Of a stretch of 64,000 nucleotides of DNA, positions 7,901 to 63,528 are shown piece after piece. Both the position numbers and the translations under genes were made by a program. The stretch is from an uncultured bacterium (GTDB lineage: Bacteria; Patescibacteriota; Minisyncoccia; Phycocordibacterales; GWA1-40-21), in assembly GCA_963840885.1 (NCBI GenBank), contig CAWJAN010000006.1, forward strand, positions 46,601 to 110,600. The letters are read 5' to 3'. The notes below the pieces were generated by a model that was given only the letters and a program-made list of their open reading frames with translations, had not been told where the DNA came from and searched no databases. Positions within the stretch are counted from its first letter, which is position 1. Every line of letters begins with the position of its first letter.

Positions 7901-10686
7901 AATGGATTGGCTCCGGGTTCAAGTGGATTCGTACCTGGATCACCATTTGCGCGATTATCATAATTGCTCGAAACATAAGCATAATGACCGTCTATAATAA
8001 TATTTTGCGGATATAATCCGACAGATGTGGTTGCAATCTGAGAAATGTGATTAAAATCGCTATAGCTTGAGATTGCTCCGTTTACGGTCAGGACATTTTC
8101 CGGAGTCGTGGTGCCGATGCCGACATTTCCGCTTGAAGCTATGTACAAAGCGGAACGGCTGGAAGGCGATATAAAATTAGCAATATCGCTTGTCGATGAA
8201 CCGAAAACCTCCAAGCTAGCAGGCTGATTTATGGCGCTTGTATTTACAGACATGAAATTATTGTTCGGGCCAATGGCTGCAAAATAGTTTCCGCCGAAAG
8301 CTATGGCGTTCAACGGCGTAGATTCTGTAAAACTTTTTGTTGTCCAATCATTGCCATTTAAAGATTCACCGAATTCTTCGGGATTTCCGACTGCTATAAA
8401 CGTGCCGTTGCCATATGCAATGGAACTCCAAGAATCAATTGTAGGTGAATTGCCTAGAGACCAATTTATTCCGTCAGAAGAAGTGGCAAACCTGTTATGG
8501 CCTAAGGAATCGCTTCCTATAAGAATAAACATATTGTTGCCATAAACAATGGCCGTTCCACTGTTCATGGGTGATGGCACGTTTTCTGCAGTCCAGTTTA
8601 TTCCATCTGAAGACTCAATCGTATGCGAGTTATTGTTAGTTCCGACAAAAATTCCATTTGCATAAATGAAAGATGACCAGTTGGCTGCTGATGTTGGAAG
8701 ACTGCTTGTGGCCCAGTTAATACCGTCCGAAGAAGTGGCGAATTGATCGCCGCCCAGGGCGACAAACATGCCGTTGCCGTATGCAATTTGCCAAGCCCAA
8801 GTAAAATACGACGGATGCGGAGGCGGCATAGTTCCGCCAGTCCAGCTTATACCATCAGAAGAAACCGCTACATGATCACCGTTTGTACCAGCAGCTATAA
8901 ATTTACCATTCCCGTATATTAACGTTTCCCAATAATCTGATTCCGGCATGGTTCCTGATGTCCAATTTATTCCGTCGGAAGAGATTGCCAAATTGCTGCC
9001 ATTGCCGGTCGCTACAAATTTGCCATTTCCGTAGGCAATAGCGAGCCAATCGCTATTGGAGACAGGGAGAGTTCCCGTAGCAAGATTGCTTCCTTCAATA
9101 GGCTCGTGAGAATTGCCTGCTTTCACTCCGCCGGAATCATAATAAATATTCGAGCCTGAGGTCGTCCACTGTGAAAGAGACGAGCTTGCGGTAAAAACAT
9201 TCCCATTTGAATCCACACTAAGTAAGCCGCTTGAAATACCGGGAAGGGTTAATCCGAATAATGTGGTTGTTCCGGTAACGGATAGTGCTGACTCAGGTGT
9301 TGTAGTGCCGATACCTATGCGGCCGTCAGCGCCAATATAGAATACTGAAGCGGATGTCGATGAGAAAAAACTGGCGATTGTGCTTGTTCCTTGCCCGAAT
9401 ACCTGGAATGTATATGCGCCAGATGATGTTGTGGTGGATGTTGTGGTAGTGGAAATCCTTACAACAGAAATATCGCTGTCATCATCATTTGCGGTATAGG
9501 CATAATCGCCGGAAATAGCGATATCGAGCGGAAAACTGCCTACTGAAACTGTCGCACTCACTGATGGAGATGAAGGGCTGGAAATATCCAAGACTGAAAT
9601 CGTATCATCGCTACCATTCACAAGATAGGCATGCGTGCCGGAAATAGCAATGCCGCGGGGATGATTTCCAACGTTCACATCGGCAATATCGCTCGGCGAA
9701 AGCGGATTTGATATATTGATGACAGAAATCGCATCACTATTAACATCGGCTACATAGGCATAATTGCCGGAAATCGCTATGCCGTATGGGCTAGATCCCC
9801 CAGGAAGCACTGCTGTAGTGACCTCAACCGGAGCAAGCGGATTTGAAATATCTACAACGGAAACATCATCATCATCGGAGTTGGTCACATAGGCATAGTT
9901 GCCGGAAACAGCAACATCAAGAGGTGAACCGCCGACCGAAGTCGTAGCAACTTGAATTGGAGCAAGCGGATTTGAAATATCTATAACAGACATTATACTA
10001 TCGGACTCATCAGCAATATAAGCGTAATTACCGGATATTGCGATGCCTAGAGCCGTATCATAATTATTCGGATCATTACCAACAGTCGTCGTAGCGACTT
10101 GGACAGGAGCTGAAGGATTTGAAACATCAATGACAGAAAGATTGCTTGCGCCATTTGTAACATATGCATAGTTGCCGGAAACTGCGACATAGTATGAGTA
10201 ATCACCTGAATCACCTACGCTCGTCGTGGCTGTCTCGATTGGAGAGAGAGGATTTGAAACATCAAAAATGGAAAATACCGCATTGCAATTATCGGCAACA
10301 TAAACATGGTCACCTGAAGCCGCAATCCCCCATGGGCATGCATTGCCATTGTCTGTCTGAGCCGTGGTGTTTTCAACAGGAGACGCAATATAATCTACTG
10401 TCGTGGTAGAGCCGGTAGTAAAAAATGAATTCGTCGATGTGCCGACAGCAAAGTTTCCTACATTGAAAAGATTCTGATTATTTAAATCGATTGTAGATGT
10501 AGCTCCTGTAAAAGGTATAAATGTGGAAAAAAGGCTCACGCCGCAGTTCGATGTTCCCATCACGCAATCCGGATTCAGCGTTTCACCAGGAGTATAAACC
10601 GAAGCAGAAGCAAAAGTAAAAAATGCAAATATGAAATATATTGCAAATAATACAGAAGAAGTGAATTTTCTAAAGGAAATATTCAT
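1945..10686 (-). CDS. Giant secreted repeat protein of 2913 aa. It contains several blocks of LVIVD-type beta-propeller repeats, tail-fibre-like 'NVGIGTSTP' repeats and a duplicated Gly-rich module. A C-terminal intramolecular-chaperone/autoprocessing domain (peptidase S74-like) is followed by an S/T/D-rich tail.
   Basis: ORF track with an N-terminal signal peptide. Recurring LVIVD signature YAYV(A/T)...SVxDISNPxxPxxxATTxVG appears more than 20 times. 'LAVDxNGNVxATTxxSGSSQWTSTSSNIYYxxGNVGIGTSTP' appears at least three times. The C-terminal segment SDERLKNIDGDFTLGLD..INYHWN..TGFSAQNVQSVIPEAV..PIIAALVNAVKEI matches the endosialidase/tailspike chaperone-domain consensus (SDxRLKxNI...Y.W...GfiAQEV..V.PE.V...ALv.AiKEL). 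Confidence 0.9.
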   Translation of the reverse strand: MNISFRKFTSSVLFAIYFIFAFFTFASASVYTPGETLNPDCVMGTSNCGVSLFSTFIPFTGATSTIDLNNQNLFNVGNFAVGTSTNSFFTTGSTTTVDYIASPVENTTAQTDNGNACPWGIAASGDHVYVADNCNAVFSIFDVSNPLSPIETATTSVGDSGDYSYYVAVSGNYAYVTNGASNLSVIDVSNPSAPVQVATTTVGNDPNNYDTALGIAISGNYAYIADESDSIMSVIDISNPLAPIQVATTSVGGSPLDVAVSGNYAYVTNSDDDDVSVVDISNPLAPVEVTTAVLPGGSSPYGIAISGNYAYVADVNSDAISVINISNPLSPSDIADVNVGNHPRGIAISGTHAYLVNGSDDTISVLDISSPSSPSVSATVSVGSFPLDIAISGDYAYTANDDDSDISVVRISTTTTSTTTSSGAYTFQVFGQGTSTIASFFSSTSASVFYIGADGRIGIGTTTPESALSVTGTTTLFGLTLPGISSGLLSVDSNGNVFTASSSLSQWTTSGSNIYYDSGGVKAGNSHEPIEGSNLATGTLPVSNSDWLAIAYGNGKFVATGNGSNLAISSDGINWTSGTMPESDYWETLIYGNGKFIAAGTNGDHVAVSSDGISWTGGTMPPPHPSYFTWAWQIAYGNGMFVALGGDQFATSSDGINWATSSLPTSAANWSSFIYANGIFVGTNNNSHTIESSDGINWTAENVPSPMNSGTAIVYGNNMFILIGSDSLGHNRFATSSDGINWSLGNSPTIDSWSSIAYGNGTFIAVGNPEEFGESLNGNDWTTKSFTESTPLNAIAFGGNYFAAIGPNNNFMSVNTSAINQPASLEVFGSSTSDIANFISPSSRSALYIASSGNVGIGTTTPENVLTVNGAISSYSDFNHISQIATTSVGLYPQNIIIDGHYAYVSSNYDNRANGDPGTNPLEPGANPFAVVDISNPAAPRQIATTTVGGASSIGLAKSGHYVYVVNNGEFDHDISVMDVANPSDPKLIATSSVYGTYPAGIAISGHYAYVTDGGLSGDGNTISVFDISNPYAPSIIATTTVGFGPAGIAISGNYAYVTNGGDLTGVRGTTISVVDISNPHSPVEIATTTVGYVPTSISVSGSYAYVANFQGDSMSVVDISNPYAPFPVATTTVGSGAAPIDITVSGDYAYTANQQDNSISVINISNPLSPYLIGNIKTSTWCQGVAVSGNYVYSANSEFNSDTFAAGSISVVDIGGITAEGLEAGSIEAGTVNVSRGINIQDFLNVGTTLSVGSGGILSNGAISVSGTNTISYFAGNLGIGTTTPATALSVVGTSTTQGLNISNLSNTFLAVDANGNVTATTAPSGSSQWTSTSSNIYYSVGNVGIGTSTPDASLTISGSISNYITGINYSSLSPADIGTAQGGTAYIVPSPTGIGDALDDEATGTLTYIGDYDFKVYGYKLINGIKVPSQNYVDIPFTSTSSGPYAIDVSWNAVSGVDGYRVVVDDPNFSNHAVYTASTSIVYDEGNTPGIENFLYEYWAGPTDVTVYGKYLYATNNEGGSVSIFDNSNTASPVEVAAIAVGSFPQDIQVINNYLYVLNSGDSTVSVIDISSPKSPKSITTFSTQGGYSQKMVIKKENNHSYLYISNQENPPESDSTVSSVSVFDITSGTNPVFITKVSDGGNQAFGLAMSADNNYLYEANWGNLGSGTIPDSISTFDISSSSNPVLVATTTTPAGSNPSCMVVSGSYLYTSYQYIDSHSTLGQMAVFDISSSSNPIQIATTTVDINPQDISVSGNYAYLVNAESGTMSVVDISSSTNPITLDSVGAGAAPQGLAVFGNHAYVGAFGSNDITVIDLGNDFFNSIGFTTNGSLAVTSSSSSYLLGNFGIGTMNPIGMFEIDGKDSNNIANFVSSSSQSLFFIGGDGHIGLGTTIPTAQFEIDAIDGGAIANFVSSSSQSVLYVSSDGSVGVGTSTPAYPLDVNGIVNAADFYKNGMPVFSDQFLKLSQSSVQVDVLVVAGGGGGGSNGGGGGGAGGVVSTTTDIVGSQTITVGDGGSPGNNGDDSSILSITAIGGGAGGSYGGSGNTGGSGGGEAGSGGTGSAGTAGQGNKGGDNPGGNPQGSGGGGAGAAGTDSTGSNDPAGGVGTSSSISGTPTYYGGGGGGGGYDGGPSPAGDGGNGGGGAGGYVGASSGSDATTNTGGGGGGGAAANGTGGAGGSGVVIIRYLTPVSGDGTGGTITHDGAYTVHTFTSSGTFVAPAGSAVNTKYISLTSSSSLFNFDSGIVTPSLNISGLSNTLLAVDSNGNVVATTSSGGSSQWTSTSSDIYYDLGNVGIGTSTPSEALDVAGNVYASGDIVSNSSLGLSGIASSSLISSFDILAVAGGGGGGSNGGGGGGAGGVVSTTTDIVGSQTITVGDGGSPGNNGDDSSILSITAIGGGAGGSYGGSGNTGGSGGGEAGSGGTGSAGTAGQGNKGGDNPGGNPQGSGGGGAGAAGTDSTGSNDPAGGVGTSSSISGTPTYYGGGGGGGGYDGGPSPAGDGGNGGGGAGGYVGASSGSDATTNTGGGGGGGAAANGTGGAGGSGVVIIRYLTPVSGDGTGGTITHDGAYTVHTFTSSGMFTPPAATSSITKSITLDNGVFSLDTGLITYGNVGLGTSTPSALLTVSGTLQFSSLGSAGATLITDSLGNVTVSSDERLKNIDGDFTLGLDAVKGLTPINYHWNAISGLDMTNQYTGFSAQNVQSVIPEAVATDSRGYLTLADRPIIAALVNAVKEIGSFISSVGDGLAHLTGIAIGTSQSPEGITMYDQITGQPYCIIISNGILTNVVGACQLQSTSSIQISSSDSVASDTTEIQSSDASSTDDASTTTTSTSSSDTIATSTSTSTTSSDDASTSTDDSIVSTSTSDTSSNDASLATSTDDTATSSDATSTDTADSSSDATSTDTTASSTDSGN
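2941..4763. repeat. Tandem direct duplication inside the giant gene. The period is 1089 bp, and about 734 bp are nucleotide-identical (2941..3674 and 4030..4763).
   Basis: Identical sequence blocks are visible, for example ggttcctccggttccgtctccgctcactggagtcaaatatctgatgattacgacgcc at 2999 and 4088. Two byte-identical spurious plus-strand ORFs sit at 3150..3497 and 4239..4586, offset by 1089 bp. The encoded identical segment is about 245 aa, running from AGGGGGGSNGG to GVVIIRYLTPVSGDGTGGTITHDGAYTVHTFTSSG. Confidence 0.9.
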
Positions 10687-10762: not shown

Positions 10763-13700
10763 TTACACCACCAAATTCTCATTCACAATCCCTCCTTTCA
10801 GGTCTACAACGGGAGATTTGAAGGCTTCCGTGTAAGATTCATCATCGTTCTTCCTATCGATCTTCAGATAGTATCTTCCTTGGGGGAGAAGGATGTAATA
10901 TCTGCCGTATTTGTCTGCGATTTTCTTGGCGATAGGAGAATCATCCTGGCCTTCCCTGTAGATCTTGATTACTGCAAATGAGAGCGGCAGGCCTGTTTTG
11001 GAATCCTTGATCGTTCCAGCTTTCTTCGTCCTGAAGACGACATAGTTCAGGAGATACGCGATGACATAGAGGCCGGCAACGATGAGGTTGTAAGGCGCTG
11101 GAGCGAAGATGAGGGCGATGAGCGCGACGAAAGCGCCGATGACGAAGAGCAGATCATATATCCTTGACCAGATTACTGTGGAACCTTTGGTGAAAGTATT
11201 CATGTTTGCCCTGTTCTTGGCGAACTCGTTCCAGTCGAATTTCAAAGGATCCATCGGGATATTCTTGGTGATGATTTCTCCGAGAGATCCGATGACGAGC
11301 TCTTCTCCGTGATAGAGGTCGTTGTAAACGTCGTCGAATGTGCCGAGAATCTTCTTTGACGGGAAAGAATAGTTGGTCTTCTGGGCCATGATCCTGTACT
11401 TGCCGGGCATTACGAGGAATCCGTATCTGCCGTCGAGGTCCGTGATTGCGGTGGCTGCGGTTTTGTTGGTCGCGATATCGATGAGCGTCACGTAAGCCGG
11501 ATCGAGAGGACGCTTCGTTACGGAATCATATACTGTTCCCCATTTTCTCTGCTTTTTCTTCAGGCCTAAGGATTCGGATAGCAAGCCGAAGAATCTTGCC
11601 GGTATGGTCCAGGTTTCAGACCAGGTCAGGGGGTTAACGAAAAGAAGCGCGGCTGAATATGCGATGCCTCCGATGACAAGGCCGACGGTCGAGATTACTT
11701 TGACCACTATGGAACCGACAGGATCGTTTACGGTAGAGCTTGCCATTCTGATTATTGGATTTAATGTATCCGATATTCCCTTGATGGCATTGTTGAAAGA
11801 TTGAGAATTCGATACTGGTGCCGTTGGTGCGGGAGTTGGAGTCGGAGTTGGCGCAGGTGCTGGAGTTGGCAAAGGTGTTGGCACAGGAGTTGGCAAAGGT
11901 GTTGGCGTAGGGGTTGGTGTCGGAGGTTCAGGAGGAACGACTGGAAGAGGTTCGGTCTGGCATCCGAGGATGTCATTGGCTTTCTTCCTTGAATAGTATC
12001 CGAAGTTTCCTGTTCCGCTTGAAAGTCCGTATGGAGAGAGGATGTCGCTTGCATATGCGTTCTGGAAATTGGTGACTGAATCTGCAGTTACTGTTCCGTA
12101 ATATTCCATCTCGGAACCTAGTGTTTCCGGACCGCTTGTGGCCTGATCGAATCCGTTGGTGTTCAGGAATATCTGGAGATCCTTAACGTCAGGATCAGAT
12201 GTTCCCGGCATGAGGTTCTTGGTGAAGCAGAATCCTTTAGGCAATGTCGGAGGGATGATTACTGGAGGGGTTGAGGTTGCAGGCGTGGTTGTTGCGGGGG
12301 TGGTGGTTGGAACGATAGGAGGTTCGGTTGAACCGCCGGATGGGCCTGTATATGGAGGCAAAACCGGTGTAGGCAGAGTCGTGGTTGCTCTTCTTCCGTG
12401 TGGACGATGGGGAAACAGCCAGTTGACGTCTGAGCCTCCGTCTACACAGCCGTTAGTGCAGTCGAAGGCGTCAGCGGAAAGATTGGTTGAGCCTGAGACA
12501 TCTAAAAATGAAAATGAAGATGTGCCTGAACCGGTTTGCAGTATATTGAAAGGAACTATAGCTGGTGGAGAAAACTTTTGAACATCGCCGCCATTATGCC
12601 CGTAGTCGGCAACATATATATTGTTATTCGAATCAACCGTTAATTGCGTAGGATTGGAAAATTGTCCATCGCTAGTCGTGCCGAATGTGCCGAATTGGCT
12701 AATCAATGAAAGATCCGAATCAAGCTTAACGACATTATGATTGCCTGAATCGGATACATATAAATATCCGTTTGAATCTACGGCTACGCCGTATGGTGAG
12801 CTGACATCTGTATATGAAGAAACGTAAGAAAGGTCGGATACATTAAATTTTACGATTCGATTATGCCCAGTATCGGCAAGATAAATAAAAGTTCCCGCCG
12901 GATCAACGGCGAGCGAACCGCTAGTCGAATTAAAGCTGAAACCTTGGCTGTTGGCGGAAGTGGTTGATGCAATAAGGTTAAAATTTGAATCCAATTTCAA
13001 TATTCCGCCGGTTGGGCCGTAATTGCTGGTGACATATATATTGCCGGATGAATCAACGGCAATGCCTCCGGAAATACCGGTGCTCTGAACTGATGGAATC
13101 GTAGTGATATCCGGGGAAGATATCAAAAAATTACCGCTGGGATCAAATTCCATAATTTTATTACTCGATCCGTTCGCTACGTACAAATTATCCGAAATAT
13201 CAGTGGATAATTGCACCGGATCAGAAAGCGAACTTGTCGCAATGGTGTTTATCAAATTGCCGGAACTGTCGAATTCTTTTATATAATTTCCAAAATAATC
13301 CGAAACATAGATATTATCTGCCGAATCATGGGCTACTCCAAAGGTTAAGCTAAGCGATGATAACAATTCGCTATTAAATTGAGGAATGGAAGCCCCTCCA
13401 GTATTTATTGAAAGAAGATTGCCAGAGCTTCCGGACAGAGAAATGCTGCCGGATATGGTTGTCGTGGCAGTCTGATCGAATAAAAGCGATGAGCCCGATG
13501 ATGAAAACTTGGTCAAATTAGGAAATGTGTTTGAACCGGAAATGGTTTGGGAGGATGTTCCTGTAAAATTAACCGTGCCTGAAGAGCTTGCGCTCGTATC
13601 TTCAAGTATTCCGCCTGTATTCGACCAATTGCCATAAACATTCAGTATATATCCGTTTAAATCAAGAGTTCCTCCGTCTACTAAAACAAGACTGCGAATA

Positions 13701-15079
13701 TTTTCATCCTGATAAAGTGTGACTGTTCCGGTGCTTATCGTCGCATCACTCGTCTCATCTGTCGATGTCGATATAAAATTTATTGCTCCCCCACCTGTTA
13801 TAAGCGTTCCGCCGGTGTTTATAAAATTCCACCAATGGCCGCTAAAATTTAATGTGTAAGATGACAGGTCTAGCGTTCCTCCGGATGCCAAAATAAGGCT
13901 ATTAACATTTTGATCTTGGGTCAGGTCGATAGTCCCAGTATTTATAGTTGCGCTGTCGGAAGATCCAGGAAAATCAATGCCTTCAACGGGAACATACCCT
14001 GATGGAAGCACGAGTCCGTTATAGGTGGTCGAAGCGGTGCCGTCCGGATTAACGACGGTTATATTATTGTTATGAGCATCGGTAACATAAATATATCCTG
14101 ATGTCGTGAGAGCCATACCAAAAGGCTGAGAAAATCCGAATGAAGAATAAGTTGTCGAAGCGGTGCCGTCCGGATTGTAGACCACGATACGATGCGATCC
14201 ATTGGATTCCAATGCGTATATATCTCCCGATGAGGAGAGTGCCACGTTTTCAGGGACGAAAAGTCCGCTGCCGTTATAGCTTGTCGAAGCGGTGCCGTCC
14301 GGATTTAAGATATCAATGCGGTTATTCGAAGCATCGGCAACATATATTTCTCCTGAAGGCGAAAAAGTTATGCCGAAAGGATATATCGGAGCCAGGCTTC
14401 CTCCGTCATAGCTTGTGGATGCTGTGCCGTCCGGATTTAAGATGACAATTCTGTTATTGCCTTCATCGGATACATAAATATCTCCGGATGGGGAAACTAT
14501 TACGTATCTAATATTGCTAAAAGGGGCCAGGCTTCCGCCGTTATAGCTTGTCGAAGCGGTGCCGTCCGGATTTAGGACAACGATTCTATTATTTGAAGCG
14601 TCTACTATGTACATTTCTCCTGACGGTGAGAGATTTATTCCTACGGGACCGATTGGAGCCAAGCTTCCGCCGTTATAGCTTGTGGATGCTGTGCCGTCCT
14701 GGTTCAGGACTACTATTCTATTATGTCCGTTATCAGCTATGTATATTTCTCCAGAGGTAGATGAAATCGCCAAATTATAAGGAGCGCTAAAACCAATTAA
14801 TCCTCCGTTTGTTCCCCAGGTAGTGGTGCTATTCCAGTCACCGCCTGAGCTTGTGTTGAAGGCGGTTGAAAAATTATTGCTGGAATTTGAAACGAATATC
14901 TTTTTAAAATTTTCGTTAGAAAATAAAAAAACTGCTGAAATTATTAAAATTATGAGTAGGAATATTGAAATAAATCCTGCTGGTTTCGCCTTTATTTCTG
15001 TAAATTTCATTTGGTGGATTAGGATTATTATTGCTACGGTGTTTATTATAATAGATTTTATAATAAAGACACTAATCAC
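10763..15079 (-). CDS. Large secreted surface protein of 1438 aa. It has two blocks of NHL-type beta-propeller repeats, a PT-rich linker and a putative peptidoglycan-binding-like segment. The conserved C-terminal multi-TM anchor module is shared with the 250..1941 product.
   Basis: NHL repeat signature SPSGE(I/M)Y(I/V)(A/S)DxxNNRIV(V/I)LNPDGTASTSY appears at least six times, and a second block reads IYVSDYFGNYIKEFDSSGN / LYVADTGHNRIVKF / LYVSDSGNHNVVKL. The linker is PTPTPTPTPLPTPVPTPLPTPAPAPTPTPTP. 'DVKDLQIFLNTNGF...YYGTVTADSVTNFQNAYASDIL' resembles a PG_binding_1 domain. The C-terminal module aligns with the 563-aa protein. Confidence 0.9.
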   Translation of the reverse strand: MISVFIIKSIIINTVAIIILIHQMKFTEIKAKPAGFISIFLLIILIISAVFLFSNENFKKIFVSNSSNNFSTAFNTSSGGDWNSTTTWGTNGGLIGFSAPYNLAISSTSGEIYIADNGHNRIVVLNQDGTASTSYNGGSLAPIGPVGINLSPSGEMYIVDASNNRIVVLNPDGTASTSYNGGSLAPFSNIRYVIVSPSGDIYVSDEGNNRIVILNPDGTASTSYDGGSLAPIYPFGITFSPSGEIYVADASNNRIDILNPDGTASTSYNGSGLFVPENVALSSSGDIYALESNGSHRIVVYNPDGTASTTYSSFGFSQPFGMALTTSGYIYVTDAHNNNITVVNPDGTASTTYNGLVLPSGYVPVEGIDFPGSSDSATINTGTIDLTQDQNVNSLILASGGTLDLSSYTLNFSGHWWNFINTGGTLITGGGAINFISTSTDETSDATISTGTVTLYQDENIRSLVLVDGGTLDLNGYILNVYGNWSNTGGILEDTSASSSGTVNFTGTSSQTISGSNTFPNLTKFSSSGSSLLFDQTATTTISGSISLSGSSGNLLSINTGGASIPQFNSELLSSLSLTFGVAHDSADNIYVSDYFGNYIKEFDSSGNLINTIATSSLSDPVQLSTDISDNLYVANGSSNKIMEFDPSGNFLISSPDITTIPSVQSTGISGGIAVDSSGNIYVTSNYGPTGGILKLDSNFNLIASTTSANSQGFSFNSTSGSLAVDPAGTFIYLADTGHNRIVKFNVSDLSYVSSYTDVSSPYGVAVDSNGYLYVSDSGNHNVVKLDSDLSLISQFGTFGTTSDGQFSNPTQLTVDSNNNIYVADYGHNGGDVQKFSPPAIVPFNILQTGSGTSSFSFLDVSGSTNLSADAFDCTNGCVDGGSDVNWLFPHRPHGRRATTTLPTPVLPPYTGPSGGSTEPPIVPTTTPATTTPATSTPPVIIPPTLPKGFCFTKNLMPGTSDPDVKDLQIFLNTNGFDQATSGPETLGSEMEYYGTVTADSVTNFQNAYASDILSPYGLSSGTGNFGYYSRKKANDILGCQTEPLPVVPPEPPTPTPTPTPLPTPVPTPLPTPAPAPTPTPTPAPTAPVSNSQSFNNAIKGISDTLNPIIRMASSTVNDPVGSIVVKVISTVGLVIGGIAYSAALLFVNPLTWSETWTIPARFFGLLSESLGLKKKQRKWGTVYDSVTKRPLDPAYVTLIDIATNKTAATAITDLDGRYGFLVMPGKYRIMAQKTNYSFPSKKILGTFDDVYNDLYHGEELVIGSLGEIITKNIPMDPLKFDWNEFAKNRANMNTFTKGSTVIWSRIYDLLFVIGAFVALIALIFAPAPYNLIVAGLYVIAYLLNYVVFRTKKAGTIKDSKTGLPLSFAVIKIYREGQDDSPIAKKIADKYGRYYILLPQGRYYLKIDRKNDDESYTEAFKSPVVDLKGGIVNENLVV

Positions 15080-17619: not shown

Positions 17620-18174
17620 TTATTTATTAATAGTTTTTAAAAGATTCGCAAACTTTTTCTGGACCTTTTCTAATTTAGGATTTATGACGAGCTCGCAGTA
17701 CGGATTGCCAGGATGATTGGAAAAATAATCATGATGGTAATTCTCTGCTTCATAAAATTTTTTTAGCGGTGTTACTTCGGTTACAACCTGATCGCCTCCC
17801 GTATTGGAAGCATCTATTTCTTTTATAATGGCGAGGGCCTCTTTTTTCTGTTCGGGAGTCGTATAGAAAACTGCGGATCTGTACTGAGTTCCCACATCAT
17901 TCCCCTGGCGGTTCAAGGTCGTCGGATCATGAGAACCGAAAAAAACAGTCAGAAGATCGCGGTAAGAAACCTGCGATGGATCGTATTCCACTCTTGTCAC
18001 TTCCGCATGGCCTGTTTTTCCCGAACATACTTCTTCATATGTGGGATTTTCAGTCGTCCCTCCGGAATATCCTGGCAATACCGATGAAACCCCCTTCATC
18101 ATTTTGAATACCGCTTCAGTGCACCAGAAACATCCTCCGCCGAATACTGCTATTTCCTTTTGTTTTTCTGACAT
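17620..18174 (-). CDS. msrA: Peptide-methionine (S)-S-oxide reductase MsrA.
   Basis: AVFGGGCFWCTEAVF active-site motif and GYSGG. Confidence 0.9.
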   Translation of the reverse strand: MSEKQKEIAVFGGGCFWCTEAVFKMMKGVSSVLPGYSGGTTENPTYEEVCSGKTGHAEVTRVEYDPSQVSYRDLLTVFFGSHDPTTLNRQGNDVGTQYRSAVFYTTPEQKKEALAIIKEIDASNTGGDQVVTEVTPLKKFYEAENYHHDYFSNHPGNPYCELVINPKLEKVQKKFANLLKTINK

Positions 18175-43896: not shown

Positions 43897-44328
43897 TTAC
43901 TCATTGAAGCAATCAGAAGCGCCGAAGCCGTCTCGTATCGCTTGTCCGATTTCTGTCCAATCAGTTTCCGGCCCGGCAGTTATGAGCTCGTGCCCGACCA
44001 TTTCCCTCACCGCTTTAACGGGAGAGATCTTGGCGACAAGATTCATCACATGCCGATACTTTATATAATTAAGATGCGCTTTGACCTGACGCATCATGAC
44101 AAGCACATGACCGGGCTTTGAAATATCGTATACTCCGATAGGCCCGATCCACGGATTATCTGTATACAGAAGCTGATGATGATCATGTTCGCCGACTGAA
44201 AACCTCCATGACGGGTCATTTTTGAAAAACCAGTCCTTCTTGCCGGGAAAAAATTGTATTTCCTTGGGCTGTTCTTCGGTAATGATGACATCGTTTTCCG
44301 TACGCACTACGTATGCAAGCTTTGCCAT
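43897..44328 (-). CDS. Hypothetical protein.
   Basis: 143-aa ORF with a downstream hairpin plus T-run terminator on the minus strand at about 43860..43890. Confidence 0.45.
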   Translation of the reverse strand: MAKLAYVVRTENDVIITEEQPKEIQFFPGKKDWFFKNDPSWRFSVGEHDHHQLLYTDNPWIGPIGVYDISKPGHVLVMMRQVKAHLNYIKYRHVMNLVAKISPVKAVREMVGHELITAGPETDWTEIGQAIRDGFGASDCFNE

Positions 44329-44855: not shown

Positions 44856-45491
44856 TTATGGGCGCATGGAAAGGCCGATAAGAGCCTCTCCTCTCCATGA
44901 GACTGCCGAGTCGCCAATATTCCAATGAACCCTGATATTCGGCGGATTAGCGTCGAACTCAATATTCCATGGTATCCGGTACTCAGCTGAAACGGCGAAT
45001 GTATCGTCAAAAGGAATATCGATGCCTGGACTCCACATAAAGCTCCACCTGCTCTTGCCGTTATCCAGATAATCTCCGGAAATATCGGTATAAGCGAGAG
45101 CGAGGTCTAAGCTAAAAATAATCCCTGACTCTCCAAGCGGCGAGCATAGCCTGAGCATTGCACCCGCTTGATAATTGATCTTCGCCAAAGGAACAGAACC
45201 CTCAGTCGTTTCTATCTCGATAGTGGGCGTGCCGAAATCGGCAAACAATCCCAGACCAAACCTTTTGTCCGGAAAATACAAGATGGAAACATCAGGGCCC
45301 GCGTCCCACTTGGAAGCTATCACCGTGCCTGGCCGTATAATCGGATATTCAATCTCGTTCCAAACGATTCCCTCGACGGAAATCTGGACCGGCTTGTCGG
45401 CATACGATTGCTTCGGTACGAATGAATCAGCACGCGTTTCTGCCGAGAGCAAAGAAACAAAAAGCGTTAAAAGCAAAACGAGCTTTTTCAT
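44856..45491 (-). CDS. Secreted beta-rich protein, hypothetical.
   Basis: Signal peptide MKKLVLLLTLFVSLLSAETRA and a C-terminal aromatic residue pattern. Confidence 0.5.
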   Translation of the reverse strand: MKKLVLLLTLFVSLLSAETRADSFVPKQSYADKPVQISVEGIVWNEIEYPIIRPGTVIASKWDAGPDVSILYFPDKRFGLGLFADFGTPTIEIETTEGSVPLAKINYQAGAMLRLCSPLGESGIIFSLDLALAYTDISGDYLDNGKSRWSFMWSPGIDIPFDDTFAVSAEYRIPWNIEFDANPPNIRVHWNIGDSAVSWRGEALIGLSMRP

Positions 45492-58512: not shown

Positions 58513-60042
58513 TTATTCGACTCTATGCGACTTTCTTATTTCTTTTACTTCTCCCTCATTTTCTTCCTCCTTTTTCTTTTTGCCTTCCTCGCCAAGAGCT
58601 TCCAGTTCTTTTTCCGGCAATTTAAACAATTCAAGCGATCTTTTTTCCAAATATTCGTCTGTGTTCAATTTCGGATCTTCAAGGACATCTTCCAAAAGAG
58701 CGTGCAAAACATATCCGAGCCTTGGGCCGGGATTTTCCCCGGAAATTTTAATGAGTTTCTTGCCGTCCATTTTAAGCATTCCTACGGATATAGGGTCGCG
58801 TAGAGCTTCTTCTATCATTGCGTGATATTTCCTGAGTCTGTAAGGATCGGCTTTAGGCCTTCCCATTCCCTTTCTGTCCGAAACGCGCAGATTCATCAGA
58901 TCCCATATGTTTTCTTTCCCTATTTTGGCTATGACTCTTCTTACGGCGGACAGAGTGATGGTTGAGGTATCGGAGAAAAACATATGCATTCTAACGAGTT
59001 TTTTGACCTTTTCAATAGTTTTTTGCGGATATCTAAGATCCTGAAGTATTTTTTCCGCCATTCTTGCTCCGACCACTTCGTGTCCATAAAAAGTCCATTC
59101 TTTTTGGCCTTCTTCTCCCTTCCTTCTGGCCTTAGGTTTTCCTATATCGTGAAAAAGCGAGGCCAATCTCAAATCCAAATCCCAATTTTCATCTGCTGAA
59201 TGCTGTACCGCGCGCAAAGTATGTTCCCAGACATCGTAAACATGCGCTCCTCCCTGGGCGACTCCGACCATCTTTTCCAATTCCGGAGAAATATAATTTA
59301 ATATTCCGAATTTTCTGCAGAGTTCAAGCCCGCGCATAGGGTGCGTAGACATTATTATTTTCGTAAACTCATCACGGATCCTTTCTTTGGAAATTTTTTC
59401 CAAAAGTTTTGATTCTTTTTTAATGGCTTCTTCCGTTTCCTTGTCTATTTTGAATCCTTCGTAATTGGCAAATCTTATGGCTCTCAAAATTCTGAGCCCG
59501 TCTTCACTGAATCTTTCTTCCGGATTACCAACTGTCTTTAATACCTTATTCTTCAAATCTTCTTGTCCTTTATATGGATCAACTATTTGTCCGTTATAAA
59601 AATCTTCTTTATTTACCTTGTCTTTTATATCAAGAGCAATAGCATTTATCGTAAAATCTCTTCTTTTCAAATCATCGTCCAGTTTTTTGCTGAAAATAAC
59701 CTTATCCGGCCTTCTTTGGTCGGAATATTCCGATTCAAGCCTGTATGGAGTAACTTCAATAACCTTAACCGTTTCATCTGCCTGCCCGGCCAGGGAAACG
59801 GAATCGTTCACCACGCCGACAGTTCCGTAAACATTTTCATAAAACGTTTCAGGAAATATCTTTATTATTTCTTCAGGTATGGCATTTGTAGTAAAATCCC
59901 AGTCTTTTGGCTTTATGCCGAGCAAAAGATCCCTGACGCATCCACCTATAAGATAGGCTTCAAATCCGGCGTTTTTCAGCTTATTTGAGGTGTCCCAGAC
60001 CTCTTTGGGTATGGGTCCGTACTCTTCTAGAGTTTTGTTCAT
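58513..60042 (-). CDS. cca: CCA-adding tRNA nucleotidyltransferase with a C-terminal HD domain.
   Basis: GGCVRDLLLG / DWDFTT head-domain motifs and a C-terminal HD (HDIGKP). Neighbouring tRNAs lack an encoded CCA. Confidence 0.85.
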   Translation of the reverse strand: MNKTLEEYGPIPKEVWDTSNKLKNAGFEAYLIGGCVRDLLLGIKPKDWDFTTNAIPEEIIKIFPETFYENVYGTVGVVNDSVSLAGQADETVKVIEVTPYRLESEYSDQRRPDKVIFSKKLDDDLKRRDFTINAIALDIKDKVNKEDFYNGQIVDPYKGQEDLKNKVLKTVGNPEERFSEDGLRILRAIRFANYEGFKIDKETEEAIKKESKLLEKISKERIRDEFTKIIMSTHPMRGLELCRKFGILNYISPELEKMVGVAQGGAHVYDVWEHTLRAVQHSADENWDLDLRLASLFHDIGKPKARRKGEEGQKEWTFYGHEVVGARMAEKILQDLRYPQKTIEKVKKLVRMHMFFSDTSTITLSAVRRVIAKIGKENIWDLMNLRVSDRKGMGRPKADPYRLRKYHAMIEEALRDPISVGMLKMDGKKLIKISGENPGPRLGYVLHALLEDVLEDPKLNTDEYLEKRSLELFKLPEKELEALGEEGKKKKEEENEGEVKEIRKSHRVE

Positions 60043-60133: not shown

Positions 60134-60289
60134 AAAACTGGGAACATTATACATAAAATACGGATTTTTTCAAAATAAAAAATGGCCACGCTCTAGATTG
60201 CGTGGCCCATTCCAATTTTCCGTTAGCTACTCGAAAAATAAGAACGCCGCTGTTATTTTTGCTTTCTCCATCCGCGAAACGCTGGAGAA

Positions 60290-60640
60290 ATCCTATCCTT
60301 CCCTGTTTTCTGGCTTGGGTAGGAAATAGTTGCCGATTCCGCATTGGTCTGCTGGGCACGGAACAACCCCTCATCTTTGTTTTTTGTACCGGTACAAGAG
60401 CGAAAACCTACCTCATTGTTTAAGGCACAAAGAGTTAAGCCTTTGAAACTTTTTCCTATTATTTTCGCCTCAGAGAAAGCTGGAAACGTCTCCAAAACCG
60501 CTAACGAGGCTAGCCCCTTTTAACTGCATTGGCACCAGTAAGTGACTCCTATTTTATTTCGCCTATAAGCTTAGAGCCTATACTACACGCTTAGTCGGCT
60601 AACCCATGTTATGGTGTTGGGTAGAACACTCGGAGATCGA
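60290..60640 (+). ncRNA. Candidate structured ncRNA in a ~700-bp ORF-free region. It may be a divergent RNase P-like RNA. This call is very tentative.
   Basis: No credible ORF lies between 60134 and 60835. Several RNase P-like islands are present. 'ggtAGGAAAtagttgccg' (60318) resembles the P4 5' strand, and 'tcggctaaccc' (60595) can pair with it (GUUGCCG / CGGCUAAC). 'GGCACGGAACAACCCCTC' (60354) and 'AGAGCGAAAACC' (60397) resemble the CGGUAAACCCC / GAGCAAG-AACC J11-12 region. The spacing is atypical. Confidence 0.2.
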
Positions 60641-60795
60641 TGAACACCTTCTTCCCTTAGTTATCAAATCTACTGATACTCGCTCTTGAGCTCCAAACAG
60701 AGCGACAAAAAGAAAAGAATTTTGTGGTGTTGCTTACATATTATCAAATACATATTTAAATCAAATTTATTTTTGTTTATAAAATGTTTACAGCT

Positions 60796-60823
60796 TTGAT
60801 TTATTGAATTTTTAGCGTATATT
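60796..60823 (+). promoter_or_regulatory. Candidate sigma70-like promoter (TTGATT-N16-TATATT) upstream of tRNA-Arg(TCG).
   Basis: Read from the sequence. The predicted TSS is a few nt before the tRNA 5' end. Confidence 0.35.
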
Positions 60824-60835
60824 ATCGCAGTATAA

Positions 60836-60907: not shown

Positions 60908-61526
60908 CAAATTGCAAACAGTTGAAAAACCACTCCTATCCTAAGGCGGTTTTCTTTTGCAATTTGTGAGACGGACGAGCAGAGCGAGGAGTCGGGACCG
61001 ACGGCTTTTCTTTGAGTTCACGAGAAGAAAAAGCTGTTGGCCAAAACAAAAAATATTATTTTATATTTCTCTCCCCTATTTTTATTTTTTAATTCCAAAA
61101 ACTCAAAAATTTTTAACGGACATTAAAAAAATGTGCTAAAATGTTTTTTTAATCCCCAATTCTATTTTGGCCTTATTTTAAGAGCTTTTTTTGACCTAAA
61201 CTGTGGATAACTCTGTGTATATGTGAATTAAAGACAGCTTATCGGACTATTACAAAATTCTTATTTTTAGCGTCTTTTATTAAAAATATGGCTCTAAATA
61301 ATGGTATTATATGAAGTACGTCCTTTTGAAATAAAAAGTCCTATTAAAAACGTTTCTAAGAAACGTTTTTAACGTTTCATGTGAAAAGAATCAACTAAAA
61401 GATAAGATTTTATTGGTTTAAATATCATGATAATTATCTTCCGATATAATATATGTTTAATAACAAGGATATTATGACAATTTCTATATTAGACAAAAAA
61501 TTGTTACTATATAAGCCAATAAGACA

Positions 61527-61925
61527 ATGGATAATAAATATAATACTAAAATTACAGGTAATCTAGGAGAAGATCTTGCTTGTAGATACATTGAAACAAA
61601 GGGATTTAGCATTATAAAAAGAAACTATTGGAAAAAATGGGGAGAAATAGACATAATAGCTGAAAAGAATAGGGAAACACATTTTATAGAAGTTAAAAGT
61701 GTTTCATGTGAAAACATTGACGATATAACAGATAAAACTAACGATTACAGGCCTGAAGATAATATGCATCCCTGGAAACTTCAGAGACTGGCTAGAACAA
61801 TACAATCATATATTGCCGAAAACGATGTTTTAGGTGAAACATGGCATTTTGATCTAATAACAGTATATATGGATCGTAAAAAGCTTATTTCTAAGATAAA
61901 TATGCTTGAAAACATCGTTTTATAG
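61527..61925 (+). CDS. yraN: YraN-family (UPF0102) endonuclease.
   Basis: GNLGEDLACRYIETKGFSIIKRNYWKKWGEIDIIAEK...HFIEVKS matches the YraN signature GE..A..YL...G..IL.RN.R...GEIDLIA. Confidence 0.85.
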   Translation: MDNKYNTKITGNLGEDLACRYIETKGFSIIKRNYWKKWGEIDIIAEKNRETHFIEVKSVSCENIDDITDKTNDYRPEDNMHPWKLQRLARTIQSYIAENDVLGETWHFDLITVYMDRKKLISKINMLENIVL

Positions 61926-62397
61926 GGTGTTTCACACGAAACGTTATATAAAAAGCCTTATTTTACAACAAAAAACCGCCTGTAAGACGTTTTTGAGCAA
62001 AAGGTCTTGCAGACGGTGCGAAGGGGTAAGTTCCGCGATAATTTATTTCCAAACATCAAACCATTTTCAAATATAAAATTTAAGTGAGAATGATGTGTAA
62101 GCGAAGACGAAATAAGATATCACCGAGCTATCCTTTCATTTCGAAAGTTAGCTAAACTTTCTTAAAGATCAATATTGGATTTAAGACACTTGGAGTTTTA
62201 ATAGAACAATCCAGTTGCAAAGATTCTTCTATTCGTGTCCAACCAATTCCGATTACAAGTATATGTCCTTTATTAAGCAGTGTAAAGGACATAATTGTGG
62301 ATAACTTGACAAAAGGACATTATACTTAAAAGACATGCATTTTATGGCTCTAAATAATGATATCTTATTATATTGACTTGCCTAAAATAATGTAAAT

Positions 62398-62427
62398 TTG
62401 ACAGGAAATTGAGCGGAGGAGTATAAT
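62398..62427 (+). promoter_or_regulatory. Strong consensus sigma70-type promoter TTGACA-N18-TATAAT with no annotated gene downstream.
   Basis: ttgaca at 62398..62403 and tataat at 62422..62427. TSS predicted at about 62434. Confidence 0.5.
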
Positions 62428-62433
62428 ACTAAT

Positions 62434-62733
62434 GTAGATCTTCGGCAACGTTTGATCTGCAAGTCGGTTCGGCAGGATCGACAGTTCTCTCGGAAATATT
62501 TTCATTCTTTGAAATACTTTCCAGTGTTGGTGCGATTCGCAAATGCCTTCCGGCTACCACACTCTAATCATATCGCCACCGTTCTTTCAAATCGACATTC
62601 ATAATCAATATTTAATATTTTTTCCTTCCTCTTTTTTTTCTTCCATTCTCTTATTCCTTTCTACCTTTTCGTTCTTTCGTTCCTTTCATTGATTATCTTT
62701 GTCGTCCGGCACCAATAGGTGGCCGGTTTTTTT
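62434..62733 (+). ncRNA. Candidate ~300-nt transcript bounded by a consensus promoter and an intrinsic terminator. The 5' half is structured and the 3' half is CU-rich. It is either an ncRNA or a 49-aa hydrophobic micro-protein gene.
   Basis: No ORF of 60 aa or more on either strand between 61930 and 62760. The terminator ccggcacc-aata-ggtggccgg plus TTTTTTT lies at 62706..62733. A ~110-nt pyrimidine tract runs 62620..62700. The only ATG ORF (62528..62677) encodes MPSGYHTLIISPPFFQIDIHNQYLIFFPSSFFSSILLFLSTFSFFRSFH. Confidence 0.3.
62706..62733 (+). terminator. Rho-independent terminator.
   Basis: ccggcacc aata ggtggccgg followed by seven T residues. Confidence 0.6.
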
Positions 62734-62760: not shown

Positions 62761-63528
62761 TTATTTCAATTCAAGTAAAACTGGAGCATGATCTGAACCT
62801 AAAATATTATCAAAAATTTCAGCTTTCTTGATTCTGTCTTTCATATTTTTTGAAACGAAGAAATAATCTATCCTCCAGCCGACATTTCTGTCGCGCGCAA
62901 AAGATTTCATATCCCACCAGCTGTATATTCCAGATTTATCCGGATGAAAAAATCTAAACGTATCTATAAATCCTTCTTTTACTACTTCGTCCAACCATTT
63001 CCTCTCTTCCGGTAAAAATCCAGAAGTTTTCTGATTTTCCTTCGGCCGGGCAAGGTCGATTTCCATATGTGCCGTATTCACATCACCGCAAAACACTATA
63101 TTTTTAGCCATTTTTTCAAGCTTTTTCAAAAATTTTAGATATGCGCTGTAGAATTCAATCTTGAATGCCAAACGTTCAGGACCTTGGCCGCCGTTCGGAA
63201 AATAGGTATTTAAAAGAATAAAATCCTTGTAGTGGGCGACCAGAGTTCTGCCCTCCTGATCGAACTTTTTTATGCCGATTCCGTATTCTACTTTCTCTGG
63301 CTTTATTTTTGAAAAAATTGCCACGCCGCTATATCCTTTTTTAAGTTTTGAATGGTCAAAATAAGAAAAATATCCGGCAGGGTAGCGGACTTCGTCCGGA
63401 AGCTGGTCTTCATGGGCTTTTGTTTCCTGAAGACAGATGATATCCGGATCAAGCTCAAAAACAGAACCTAGAGCGCCTTTTTTATGAACCGCTCGCAAAC
63501 CGTTTACGTTCCAGGAAATGAGTTTCAT
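62761..63528 (-). CDS. xth: Exodeoxyribonuclease III.
   Basis: MKLISWNVNGLRA N-terminus, LQETK, and the C-terminal SDHAPV motif. Confidence 0.9.
   Translation of the reverse strand: MKLISWNVNGLRAVHKKGALGSVFELDPDIICLQETKAHEDQLPDEVRYPAGYFSYFDHSKLKKGYSGVAIFSKIKPEKVEYGIGIKKFDQEGRTLVAHYKDFILLNTYFPNGGQGPERLAFKIEFYSAYLKFLKKLEKMAKNIVFCGDVNTAHMEIDLARPKENQKTSGFLPEERKWLDEVVKEGFIDTFRFFHPDKSGIYSWWDMKSFARDRNVGWRIDYFFVSKNMKDRIKKAEIFDNILGSDHAPVLLELK

Follow-up and report, generated by a model that had tools for sequence, protein, structure and literature searches.

A candidate family of structured small RNAs with a clamped pyrimidine-rich loop in Paceibacteria

We analysed a 64,000-nucleotide (nt) stretch of contig CAWJAN010000006.1 (assembly GCA_963840885.1; hereafter the window), in which a short plus-strand unit at 62398-62733, next to the exodeoxyribonuclease III gene xth, runs from a consensus promoter to an intrinsic terminator. 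Judged from sequence comparison, this unit is very probably an independent gene that specifies a structured, roughly 300-nt non-coding RNA in Paceibacteria (Patescibacteria, also known as the candidate phyla radiation, CPR). It is a member of no curated family and represents a new family of structured small RNAs (sRNAs) that is restricted to a narrow Paceibacteria clade. An earlier reading of the DNA (the first-pass annotation) had proposed an independently transcribed small RNA at this site, and the comparison upholds it: the promoter, four helices in the 5′ half, a helix that closes a large loop and the terminator are all conserved, with many compensatory changes. As in sRNA genes generally, the unit has its own promoter and Rho-independent terminator, both conserved in homologues, with no conserved open reading frame (ORF) between them, and its structure is kept by compensatory substitutions, the inner arms of the fifth helix covarying fully.

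Promoter, terminator and transcript

A consensus scan of both strands of the window revealed a single 12/12 match to the sigma-70 promoter, at 62398..62427 on the plus strand (-35 TTGACA at 62398-62403, an 18-nt spacer and -10 TATAAT at 62422-62427), with the runners-up scoring 11/12. The earlier claim that this is the best sigma-70 match therefore holds, and the match is unique in the window. Transcription would start at about 62432-62434. The hairpin and T7 terminator that had been placed some 300 nt downstream is likewise present and ends at 62733: the plus-strand element at 62706-62733 consists of CCGGCACC-AAUA-GGUGGCCGG at 62706-62726, in which one G is bulged, and of T7 (U7 in the RNA) at 62727-62733, and it was absent from the output of the consensus scan because of that bulge in the stem. 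The promoter and terminator bounds, the fold and the full-length homologues together suggest a transcript of about 300 nt at 62434..62733 on the plus strand, for which the predicted folding energy is -63.5 kcal/mol (z = -3.97 against 200 dinucleotide shuffles). That the RNA is highly expressed, as the first-pass annotation put it, was read from the consensus promoter only.

Both signals recur in related loci, which we refer to by number. TTGACA/TATAAT-type hexamers are retained in L162, L164, L163 and L170, with an extended -10 (TGcTATAAT) taking their place in L088, and the terminator is kept in L161, L162, L163, L164, L081 and L088, in the last of these with a compensatory C-G to A-U change. 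The xth gene is convergent to the unit, and its stop codon (62761) lies 28 nt past the terminator. A terminator followed so closely by a convergent stop codon does not fit a riboswitch or another cis-acting leader, and nor does the position of the L163 unit, which is placed elsewhere, in tandem after an adjoining non-coding RNA that we call q2.

Folded 5′ domain and linker

Covariation was counted in six full sequences, that of the window and five others, all from a narrow clade. RNAalifold applied to the window and L088 alone had already found six compensatory pairs. The four helices of the 5′ domain comprise 39 base pairs, with 90% of cells paired, and 18 of the 39 pairs have changed on both sides, compared with 6.4 ± 1.8 in partner shuffles, none of 500 of which reached 18. 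In a control in which the partners were slid by 1-3 columns, only 1-5 pairs with double changes were found.

All elements of the unit described here lie on the plus strand. Helix 1 (H1; 62434..62460) pairs GUAGAUC with GAUCUGC and carries an inner CG-GCAA-CG with a GNRA tetraloop; three of its seven pairs have changed on both sides. This hairpin (CGGCAACG) is retained in four lineages, and the letters read earlier as UUCG vary (CCUCGG, CAUCGG). The structured 5′ half described in the first-pass annotation thus stands, as four conserved helices, but its UUCG loop does not: the CUUCGG letters at 62440-62445 form no UUCG tetraloop, and a GCAA tetraloop closed by CG/CG is found instead. Helix 2 (H2; 62463..62482) reads GUCGGUUC-GGCA-GGAUCGAC, with double changes in three of seven pairs, and L170 has UAGGUUU/AAACCUA at its position; an extra GUUCU at 62484-62488 separates it from helix 3. 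Helix 3 (H3; 62492..62522; GGAAA..UUUCA-loop-UGAAA..UUUCC) is the site of double changes in eight of 11 pairs, L088 having GAGAU..GACU/AGUC..AUCUC there. Helix 4 (H4; 62523..62563) is branched, with an outer AGUGU-GGU/ACC-ACACU around a GCC-UUCC-GGC hairpin; it is the most sequence-conserved part of the unit, with 94-100% of cells paired and a G-C to C-G swap at columns 114/151 in three of the six sequences. The domain is followed by a single-stranded linker (62564..62592; CUAAUCAUAUCG..GUUCUUUCAAAU, also written ..UAAUCAUAUCG..GUUCUUUCAAAU) that is near-invariant in the alignments, has a predicted probability of being unpaired of 0.71-0.95 and carries the motif GUUCUUUC at 62581-62588.

Clamped pyrimidine loop

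Downstream of the linker the composition becomes extreme. Positions 62600-62699 are 82% pyrimidine and 3% G, and the 100-nt stretch richest in pyrimidine in the whole window starts at 62608 (0.84, the 99.9th percentile being 0.79). The pyrimidine tract of about 110 nt reported in the first-pass annotation is essentially right though generous, since its extreme part covers 62610-62687 (78 nt, 88% pyrimidine; C 27%, U 62%, A 9%, G 3%), but it is the loop of a fifth helix and not a tail. The 5′ arm of this helix (62593..62609) consists of an outer CGACA at 62593-62597 and an inner AUAAUCAAU at 62601-62609, and the 3′ arm (62688..62704) of an inner AUUGAUUAU at 62688-62696 and an outer UGUCG at 62700-62704. 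The outer stem CGACA/UGUCG is invariant. The inner arm is different in each lineage (AUAAUCA is among the versions) and its partner is always complementary, the inner stems being AUAAUCAAU/AUUGAUUAU in the window, AUCAACAGAU/AUCUGUUGAU in L164, ACCAACA/UGUUGGU in L163, UCUAAAAUAAU/AUUAUUUUAGA in L170 and AAUCAAUAA/UUAUUGAUU in L161.

The loop itself is predicted to be almost entirely unpaired (probability 0.92-1.00). Loops of the homologues span 41-74 nt (41-78 nt with that of the window), with 85-90% pyrimidine and 0-6% G. Composition is conserved across clades; loop sequence and length are not. A check of the C/U tract in relatives, as had been proposed, revealed that pyrimidine richness is kept in the loop-bearing lineages and that L088 is without the tract, its equivalent stem bearing a loop of only 4 nt, and retains the core. 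Close to the 3′ end of the window loop lies GUUCUUUC-GUUCCUUUC (62671-62687), and Tandem Repeats Finder reported a repeat of period 8 in 3.9 copies at 62654-62687. The motif GUUC[UC] occurs two to five times per RNA in loop-bearing lineages, against about two per kb in the window; two of its positions, near nt 51 and nt 150, are occupied in all five loop-bearing lineages, and L088 has the second only. Within the closer clade the 24-mer UUUUCGUUCUUUCGUUCCUUUCA is retained across lineages whose Xth is only 77-83% identical to that of the window, and in the same alignment the sequence upstream of the promoter is, by eye, far more diverged, a contrast that speaks for selection on the tail.

Homologues and distribution

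The first comparison covered 80 genomic xth loci and revealed nothing resembling the unit; metagenomic loci were added later, together with contigs retrieved by way of close Xth relatives. Seven or eight further Paceibacteria lineages have a homologue beside xth, five of these copies being full-length: L162 (2390-2682, minus strand; Xth 80% identical to that of the window), L164 (3800-4089, minus; Xth 77%), L163 (2713-2978, plus; Xth 79%), in which the unit has the opposite orientation and flanks q2 on its far side, the more divergent L170 (3305-3581, minus; Xth 75%), whose copy is identical in L171 and L172, and L088 (3778-4010, minus; Xth 71%), without the long C/U tract. The copies in L161 (Xth 83%) and L081 (Xth 78%) are partial, being cut by contig ends. 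Wherever the flanks are visible, the unit adjoins xth and q2.

Searches of 175 xth loci and the window with blastn, nhmmer and a covariance model of the 5′ domain (R1) found no homologues beyond these lineages; as R1 finds no other copy in the 175 loci, the family is real but narrow and patchy. The unit is absent from many equally close relatives: L002, with an Xth 89% identical to that of unit-bearing L088, is without it, and in L001, L002 and L004 q2 abuts xth, with no space for the unit. Conservation in relatives, which the first-pass annotation had named as a check, is thus found in a subset of them, the unit being cleanly absent from others.

The unit had been described as having no annotated product, and database searches agree. 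Among the 4,227 covariance models of Rfam 15 none matched 62398-62733 at the gathering score or at E ≤ 10, and the ORF discussed below has no Pfam match. In the whole window, as in 18 related loci of which five carry homologues, Rfam found only tRNAs. Phages and plasmids gave no blastn match to the unit, and IMG/VR contained no match to the conserved helix-4 pattern, so that nothing marks the unit as part of a mobile element, phage or plasmid. Six exact 17-mer matches in IMG/VR contigs were rejected as chance, as the covariance model does not recognize them as homologues.

Coding potential

An ATG-initiated 49-codon ORF at 62543-62692 encodes an F/S-rich hydrophobic peptide, which the first-pass annotation had offered as an alternative product of the unit. 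Its presence in the window would accord with a hydrophobic micro-protein, for example a type I toxin-like membrane peptide; the hydrophobicity, for its part, arises because C/U-rich codons give F, L, S and P. Comparison of the sequences refutes this interpretation, to which we assign practically no probability, since the ORF is kept in no homologue. In L162 the same ATG meets a stop codon after seven codons (as read from its sequence), L164 lacks any ORF of 20 amino acids or more, and the ORFs of L163, L170 and L088 differ in frame and are of unrelated sequence. The indels that separate the window from L162 in the tract measure 1, 2 and 8 nt, none a multiple of three, and L088 is missing the tract altogether. 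In the window, the ORF is indeed without a Shine–Dalgarno (SD) sequence, as had been remarked, its ATG is buried within helix 4 and Pfam does not match it. The conserved small hydrophobic ORF and ribosome-binding site of a type I toxin or micro-protein gene are therefore not found here.

The adjoining q2 RNA

The conserved non-coding RNA q2 lies on the minus strand at 61965..62255, with a promoter at 62286..62258 and a terminator at 61989-61977 on the same strand. The 470 nt adjoining the unit (61926-62400) had emerged as conserved among xth loci in the first comparison. q2 is found next to xth in at least 13 distinct Paceibacteria lineages and is thus more widespread than the unit; 11 of its 16 predicted pairs show compensatory double changes, and it matches no Rfam family. 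Its features are a GCAAC hairpin loop, UCCUCC-like and CUUUCCUUCC blocks and an invariant GUUCUUU. The two RNAs are divergent in the window, L162, L164, L170 and L088 and in tandem in L163. Paralogy between them was considered and rejected, profile searches in both directions giving E > 0.09.

A q2 hairpin at 62143-62161 (GAAAGU-UUAGCUA-ACUUUC) has a loop that is self-complementary yet varies (UAGCUA, UGAUCA, GGCC); remaining self-complementary through these changes, it makes the hairpin a near-perfect palindrome, which suggests either RNA dimerization through kissing loops or a symmetric DNA binding site. The slots flanking q2 can also hold a protein gene of about 70-80 codons, instead of or besides an RNA, at L001 5170-5470 (downstream of q2), L163 3048-3257 and L164 4641-4853. 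In L001 a promoter equivalent to that of the unit drives such a gene of about 80 codons, not an RNA, so this flank of q2 is a variable slot.

Proposed mode of action

Transcription from the sigma-70 promoter very probably begins near 62434 and ends at the hairpin and U7, and the RNA very probably folds into H1-H4, a conserved single-stranded linker and a fifth helix clamping the unpaired 78-nt, G-poor loop of about 88% C/U. The RNA, presumably abundant, might act in trans, with single-stranded pyrimidine, that is the invariant linker and the loop, as its working surface. Linker and loop together would offer two to five copies of GUUC(U/C)UU(C) and might bind, titrate or scaffold a protein that prefers single-stranded pyrimidine RNA, candidate partners being a cold-shock-domain protein, ribosomal protein S1 or a KH-domain protein. 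Specificity or stability would come from the folded 5′ domain. The loop would serve as an extendable add-on that supplies further binding sites, and this role would account for its variable length and composition, its poor sequence conservation between clades and its loss in one lineage. A platform or sponge for such a protein is a possible but tentative account of how the unit works, and the combination of an sRNA gene with a trans-acting pyrimidine platform, our best overall explanation, falls somewhat short of an even chance. Among the mechanisms considered, the protein platform comes first, pairing with mRNA second and pairing with q2 third; we prefer a protein to an mRNA as the partner because tests of base-pairing gave little support.

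Several observations weigh against this proposal. Chance alone repeats short C/U motifs in a tract of 88% pyrimidine, and since L088 does without the loop, the function cannot have the loop as its core. We could link no gene for a Csp, S1 or KH-domain protein to the RNA; none adjoins it, and the window yielded no csp gene in a motif scan. GUUCUUU does resemble GTCTTTG/T, the preference of Bacillus subtilis CspB (PMC1904285), a likeness that is a lead only, taken from a paper on another phylum, and does not amount to a test. The covariation comes from six full sequences of a narrow clade, and the alignment behind the pair counts was fitted to the model and therefore favours structure.

C/U- or C-rich sRNA loops pair with mRNA in bacteria without Hfq, and the unpaired linker and loop of the unit might similarly pair with purine-rich mRNA at SD-like AGGAGG or GAAAGAAC-type sites, blocking translation or altering mRNA stability; we regard this as unlikely, if the foremost of the alternatives. 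The single-stranded pyrimidine regions are predicted to be accessible, the conserved, unpaired linker could serve as a seed, and CCUC/CCUCC-like strings occur in the loops, such as UCUUCCUCCUUCUC in L170. Across 48 start regions of the window, the best duplex (-27.2 kcal/mol) falls at ORF 44856-45491, whose AUAGGAGGAUAAG is among the strongest SD motifs of the window, but this value is within the shuffled range (shuffled minimum -26.8), the mean duplex energy is -14.9 against -14.4 kcal/mol for shuffled sequences, and no target stands out. SD-like motifs precede only seven of 53 ORFs, many genes appearing leaderless, and this rarity weakens the idea of an anti-SD sponge; the complement GAAAGAAC(G) lies near no start codon elsewhere in the window, and the loop sequence is unconserved between clades and dispensable in L088. 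The partner might instead be q2, with the linker GUUCUUUCAAAUCGA or the loop copy UCCUUUCAUU pairing with the conserved single-stranded UCGAAAUGAAAGG of q2, so that one RNA would sponge or remodel the other (proposed contact sequences GUUCUUUCA/UGAAAGGAU), an arrangement that we consider improbable. It would agree with the position of the unit directly beside q2 wherever flanks are visible, and the loop copy at 62681-62690 of the window is a 10-nt perfect complement of q2 AAUGAAAGGA (plus strand 62131-62140). The same q2 site is predicted in three genomes, at -22.8, -21.1 and -28.9 kcal/mol (z = -2.9, -1.9 and -5.05 against shuffled linkers), but these genomes are close relatives and hence not independent. 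The cognate duplex is weak in L170 (-9.6 kcal/mol) and L088 (-5.0 kcal/mol), where it is not the best site, cognate pairs do no better than non-cognate ones in the energy matrix, two L162 substitutions at the site are, on our reading of the alignment, not compensatory, and most lineages carry q2 without the unit. Low-complexity purine and pyrimidine strings, moreover, give many chance registers. Pairing between the unit and q2 is thus suggestive in three related genomes and not general.

The element might also act at the level of DNA or transcription, either through the act of transcription (by supercoiling or by opening a nearby origin or promoter) or through an unusual DNA structure, the RNA being a by-product; we judge this very unlikely. 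The setting invites the idea. The unit and q2 share a control region between their divergent promoters (62263..62336, no strand assigned), in which four ATGTCCTTTA-like boxes accompany a perfect DnaA box (TTATCCACA, 62296-62304), immediately upstream of the q2 promoter. These elements are conserved in relatives, with five boxes in L001. The window holds 14 matches to the box at no more than one mismatch, where 5.7 are expected, and four of them cluster here; only two perfect DnaA boxes occur in the 64 kb, at 61202-61210 and 62296-62304; a strong promoter and a polypurine/polypyrimidine tract stand beside the repeat cluster; and a conserved AT-rich block at 61183-61393 is close. Compensatory changes in five helices and the strand-specific depletion of G, on the other hand, point to selection on RNA and not on the duplex, the unit lies inverted on the opposite flank of q2 in L163, and the DnaA-box region is kept without the unit in many relatives. 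There is no dnaA gene in the window, and, judged by size without a Pfam run, no ORF among those listed for the beginning of the complete chromosome OY970290.1 is dnaA-like. The conserved non-coding region with its DnaA boxes may mark a replication origin or a DnaA-controlled promoter.

More speculatively, and with a small probability, the unit and q2 might form a Paceibacteria-specific two-RNA regulatory module under a shared control region with a DnaA box and repeated boxes, in which an abundant RNA would present its nearly G-free loop of up to 78 nt, clamped on a stem, as a multivalent docking site, either for a global protein that binds single-stranded RNA or for q2 itself. RNAs of this kind would form a new class of sponge. 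If true, such a module would couple replication or cell-cycle status, through DnaA, to post-transcriptional control in bacteria with very few known regulators.

Start signals elsewhere in the window are of separate interest. Several start codons lie 6-10 nt past a TATAAT box, for example those of xth (63528) and ORF 17620-18174, which suggests that leaderless mRNAs are frequent. A few strong SD motifs (AGGAGGA) precede ORFs without a confident family, 43897-44328 and 44856-45491, the latter having only a sub-threshold match to a beta-barrel outer-membrane protein.

Comparison with known RNAs

Hfq-independent base-pairing sRNAs with C/U- or C-rich unpaired loops include RsaE/RoxS of Firmicutes and 6C RNA of Actinobacteria. 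RepG of Helicobacter pylori belongs to the same kind (PMC8295292). Like these RNAs, the unit is an independent gene bounded by a promoter and an intrinsic terminator of its own, and it would expose a pyrimidine-rich single strand able to pair with G- or purine-rich mRNA. Their loops, however, are about 4-15 nt long, conserved in sequence and matched to known targets, whereas that of the unit is 41-78 nt long, variable and dispensable in one lineage, and the unit shows no sequence or Rfam relationship to them and no target in the window.

CsrB and RsmZ present GGA motifs to CsrA/RsmA, and CrcZ presents CA-rich motifs to Hfq/Crc. The unit resembles them in having several copies of a short motif in unpaired context, with copy number and length varying and the type of motif kept. 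Its motif is pyrimidine-only (GUUCYUU, CUUUC) and nearly G-free, whereas Csr/Rsm RNAs need GGA, and its copies share one large loop instead of many small hairpin loops; with 0-6% G, the loop does not provide the multiple GGA of a Csr/Rsm sponge, and the likeness is one of logic only. By analogy, C/U-rich-loop sRNAs such as RepG and motif-repeat sponges such as CsrB and CrcZ would be the nearest in logic, with loop size, depletion of G and variability setting the unit apart from both.

In the type I toxin-antitoxin loci tisB/istR-1 and shoB/ohsC the partners are divergently encoded and include an sRNA that pairs in trans. The unit and q2 are similarly back-to-back short transcription units with short, imperfect complementarity outside any overlap; in contrast to those loci, neither has a conserved small ORF (for q2, on our reading of the sequence), and the complementarity is not conserved in all lineages. 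6S RNA is abundant, widespread and 180-300 nt long, binds a protein rather than mRNA and forms a long rod with paired ends and a central bubble. The unit is similar in size and kind but would have four separate 5′ helices, a 3′ clamp, a terminator and unpaired ends; no rod-like fold and no Rfam 6S match were found.

Patescibacteria make up a large share of bacterial diversity and have tiny genomes, and to our knowledge almost no regulatory RNAs have been described from them. A search of the literature on CPR small RNAs and replication origins found nothing relevant. The locus gives two well-supported structured RNA families, the unit and q2, that are in no database. The predicted architecture of the unit, a clamped, G-depleted pyrimidine loop, is unusual and easily recognized, and the covariance model, the defined ends and the repeated motifs would provide a handle on post-transcriptional control in CPR. 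Its narrow, patchy distribution limits the general importance of the family.

Genomic context

The best relatives of Xth (62761-63528, minus strand) are from Paceibacteria (Parcubacteria), within Patescibacteria/CPR, and are 70-83% identical. The neighbouring genes include those for a UPF0102/YraN protein (61527-61925, plus), the CCA-adding enzyme (58513-60042, minus) and an unannotated protein of 145 amino acids. The order xth, non-coding region, yraN, tRNAs and cca is common to the Paceibacteria relatives.

More than 20 related loci conserve the AT-rich non-coding block at 61183-61393, upstream of yraN. This block holds the DnaA box at 61202-61210 and a 13-14-bp palindrome at 61344-61372, and it may be oriC or a regulatory hub. 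The sequence GTTTCAYGTGAAA has three sites in the window, where 0.3 would be expected by chance, one within this block and the others at 61701-61713 and 61930-61942.

Between tRNA-Gly (minus strand) and tRNA-Arg (plus strand), about 700 nt at 60134-60835 contain no credible ORF. A good minus-strand terminator lies within this interval at 60207-60184; the interval has no Rfam match and is conserved in no fetched relative. Two very large minus-strand ORFs occupy the left end of the window, one of 2,913 amino acids at 1945-10686 and one of 1,438 amino acids at 10763-15079.

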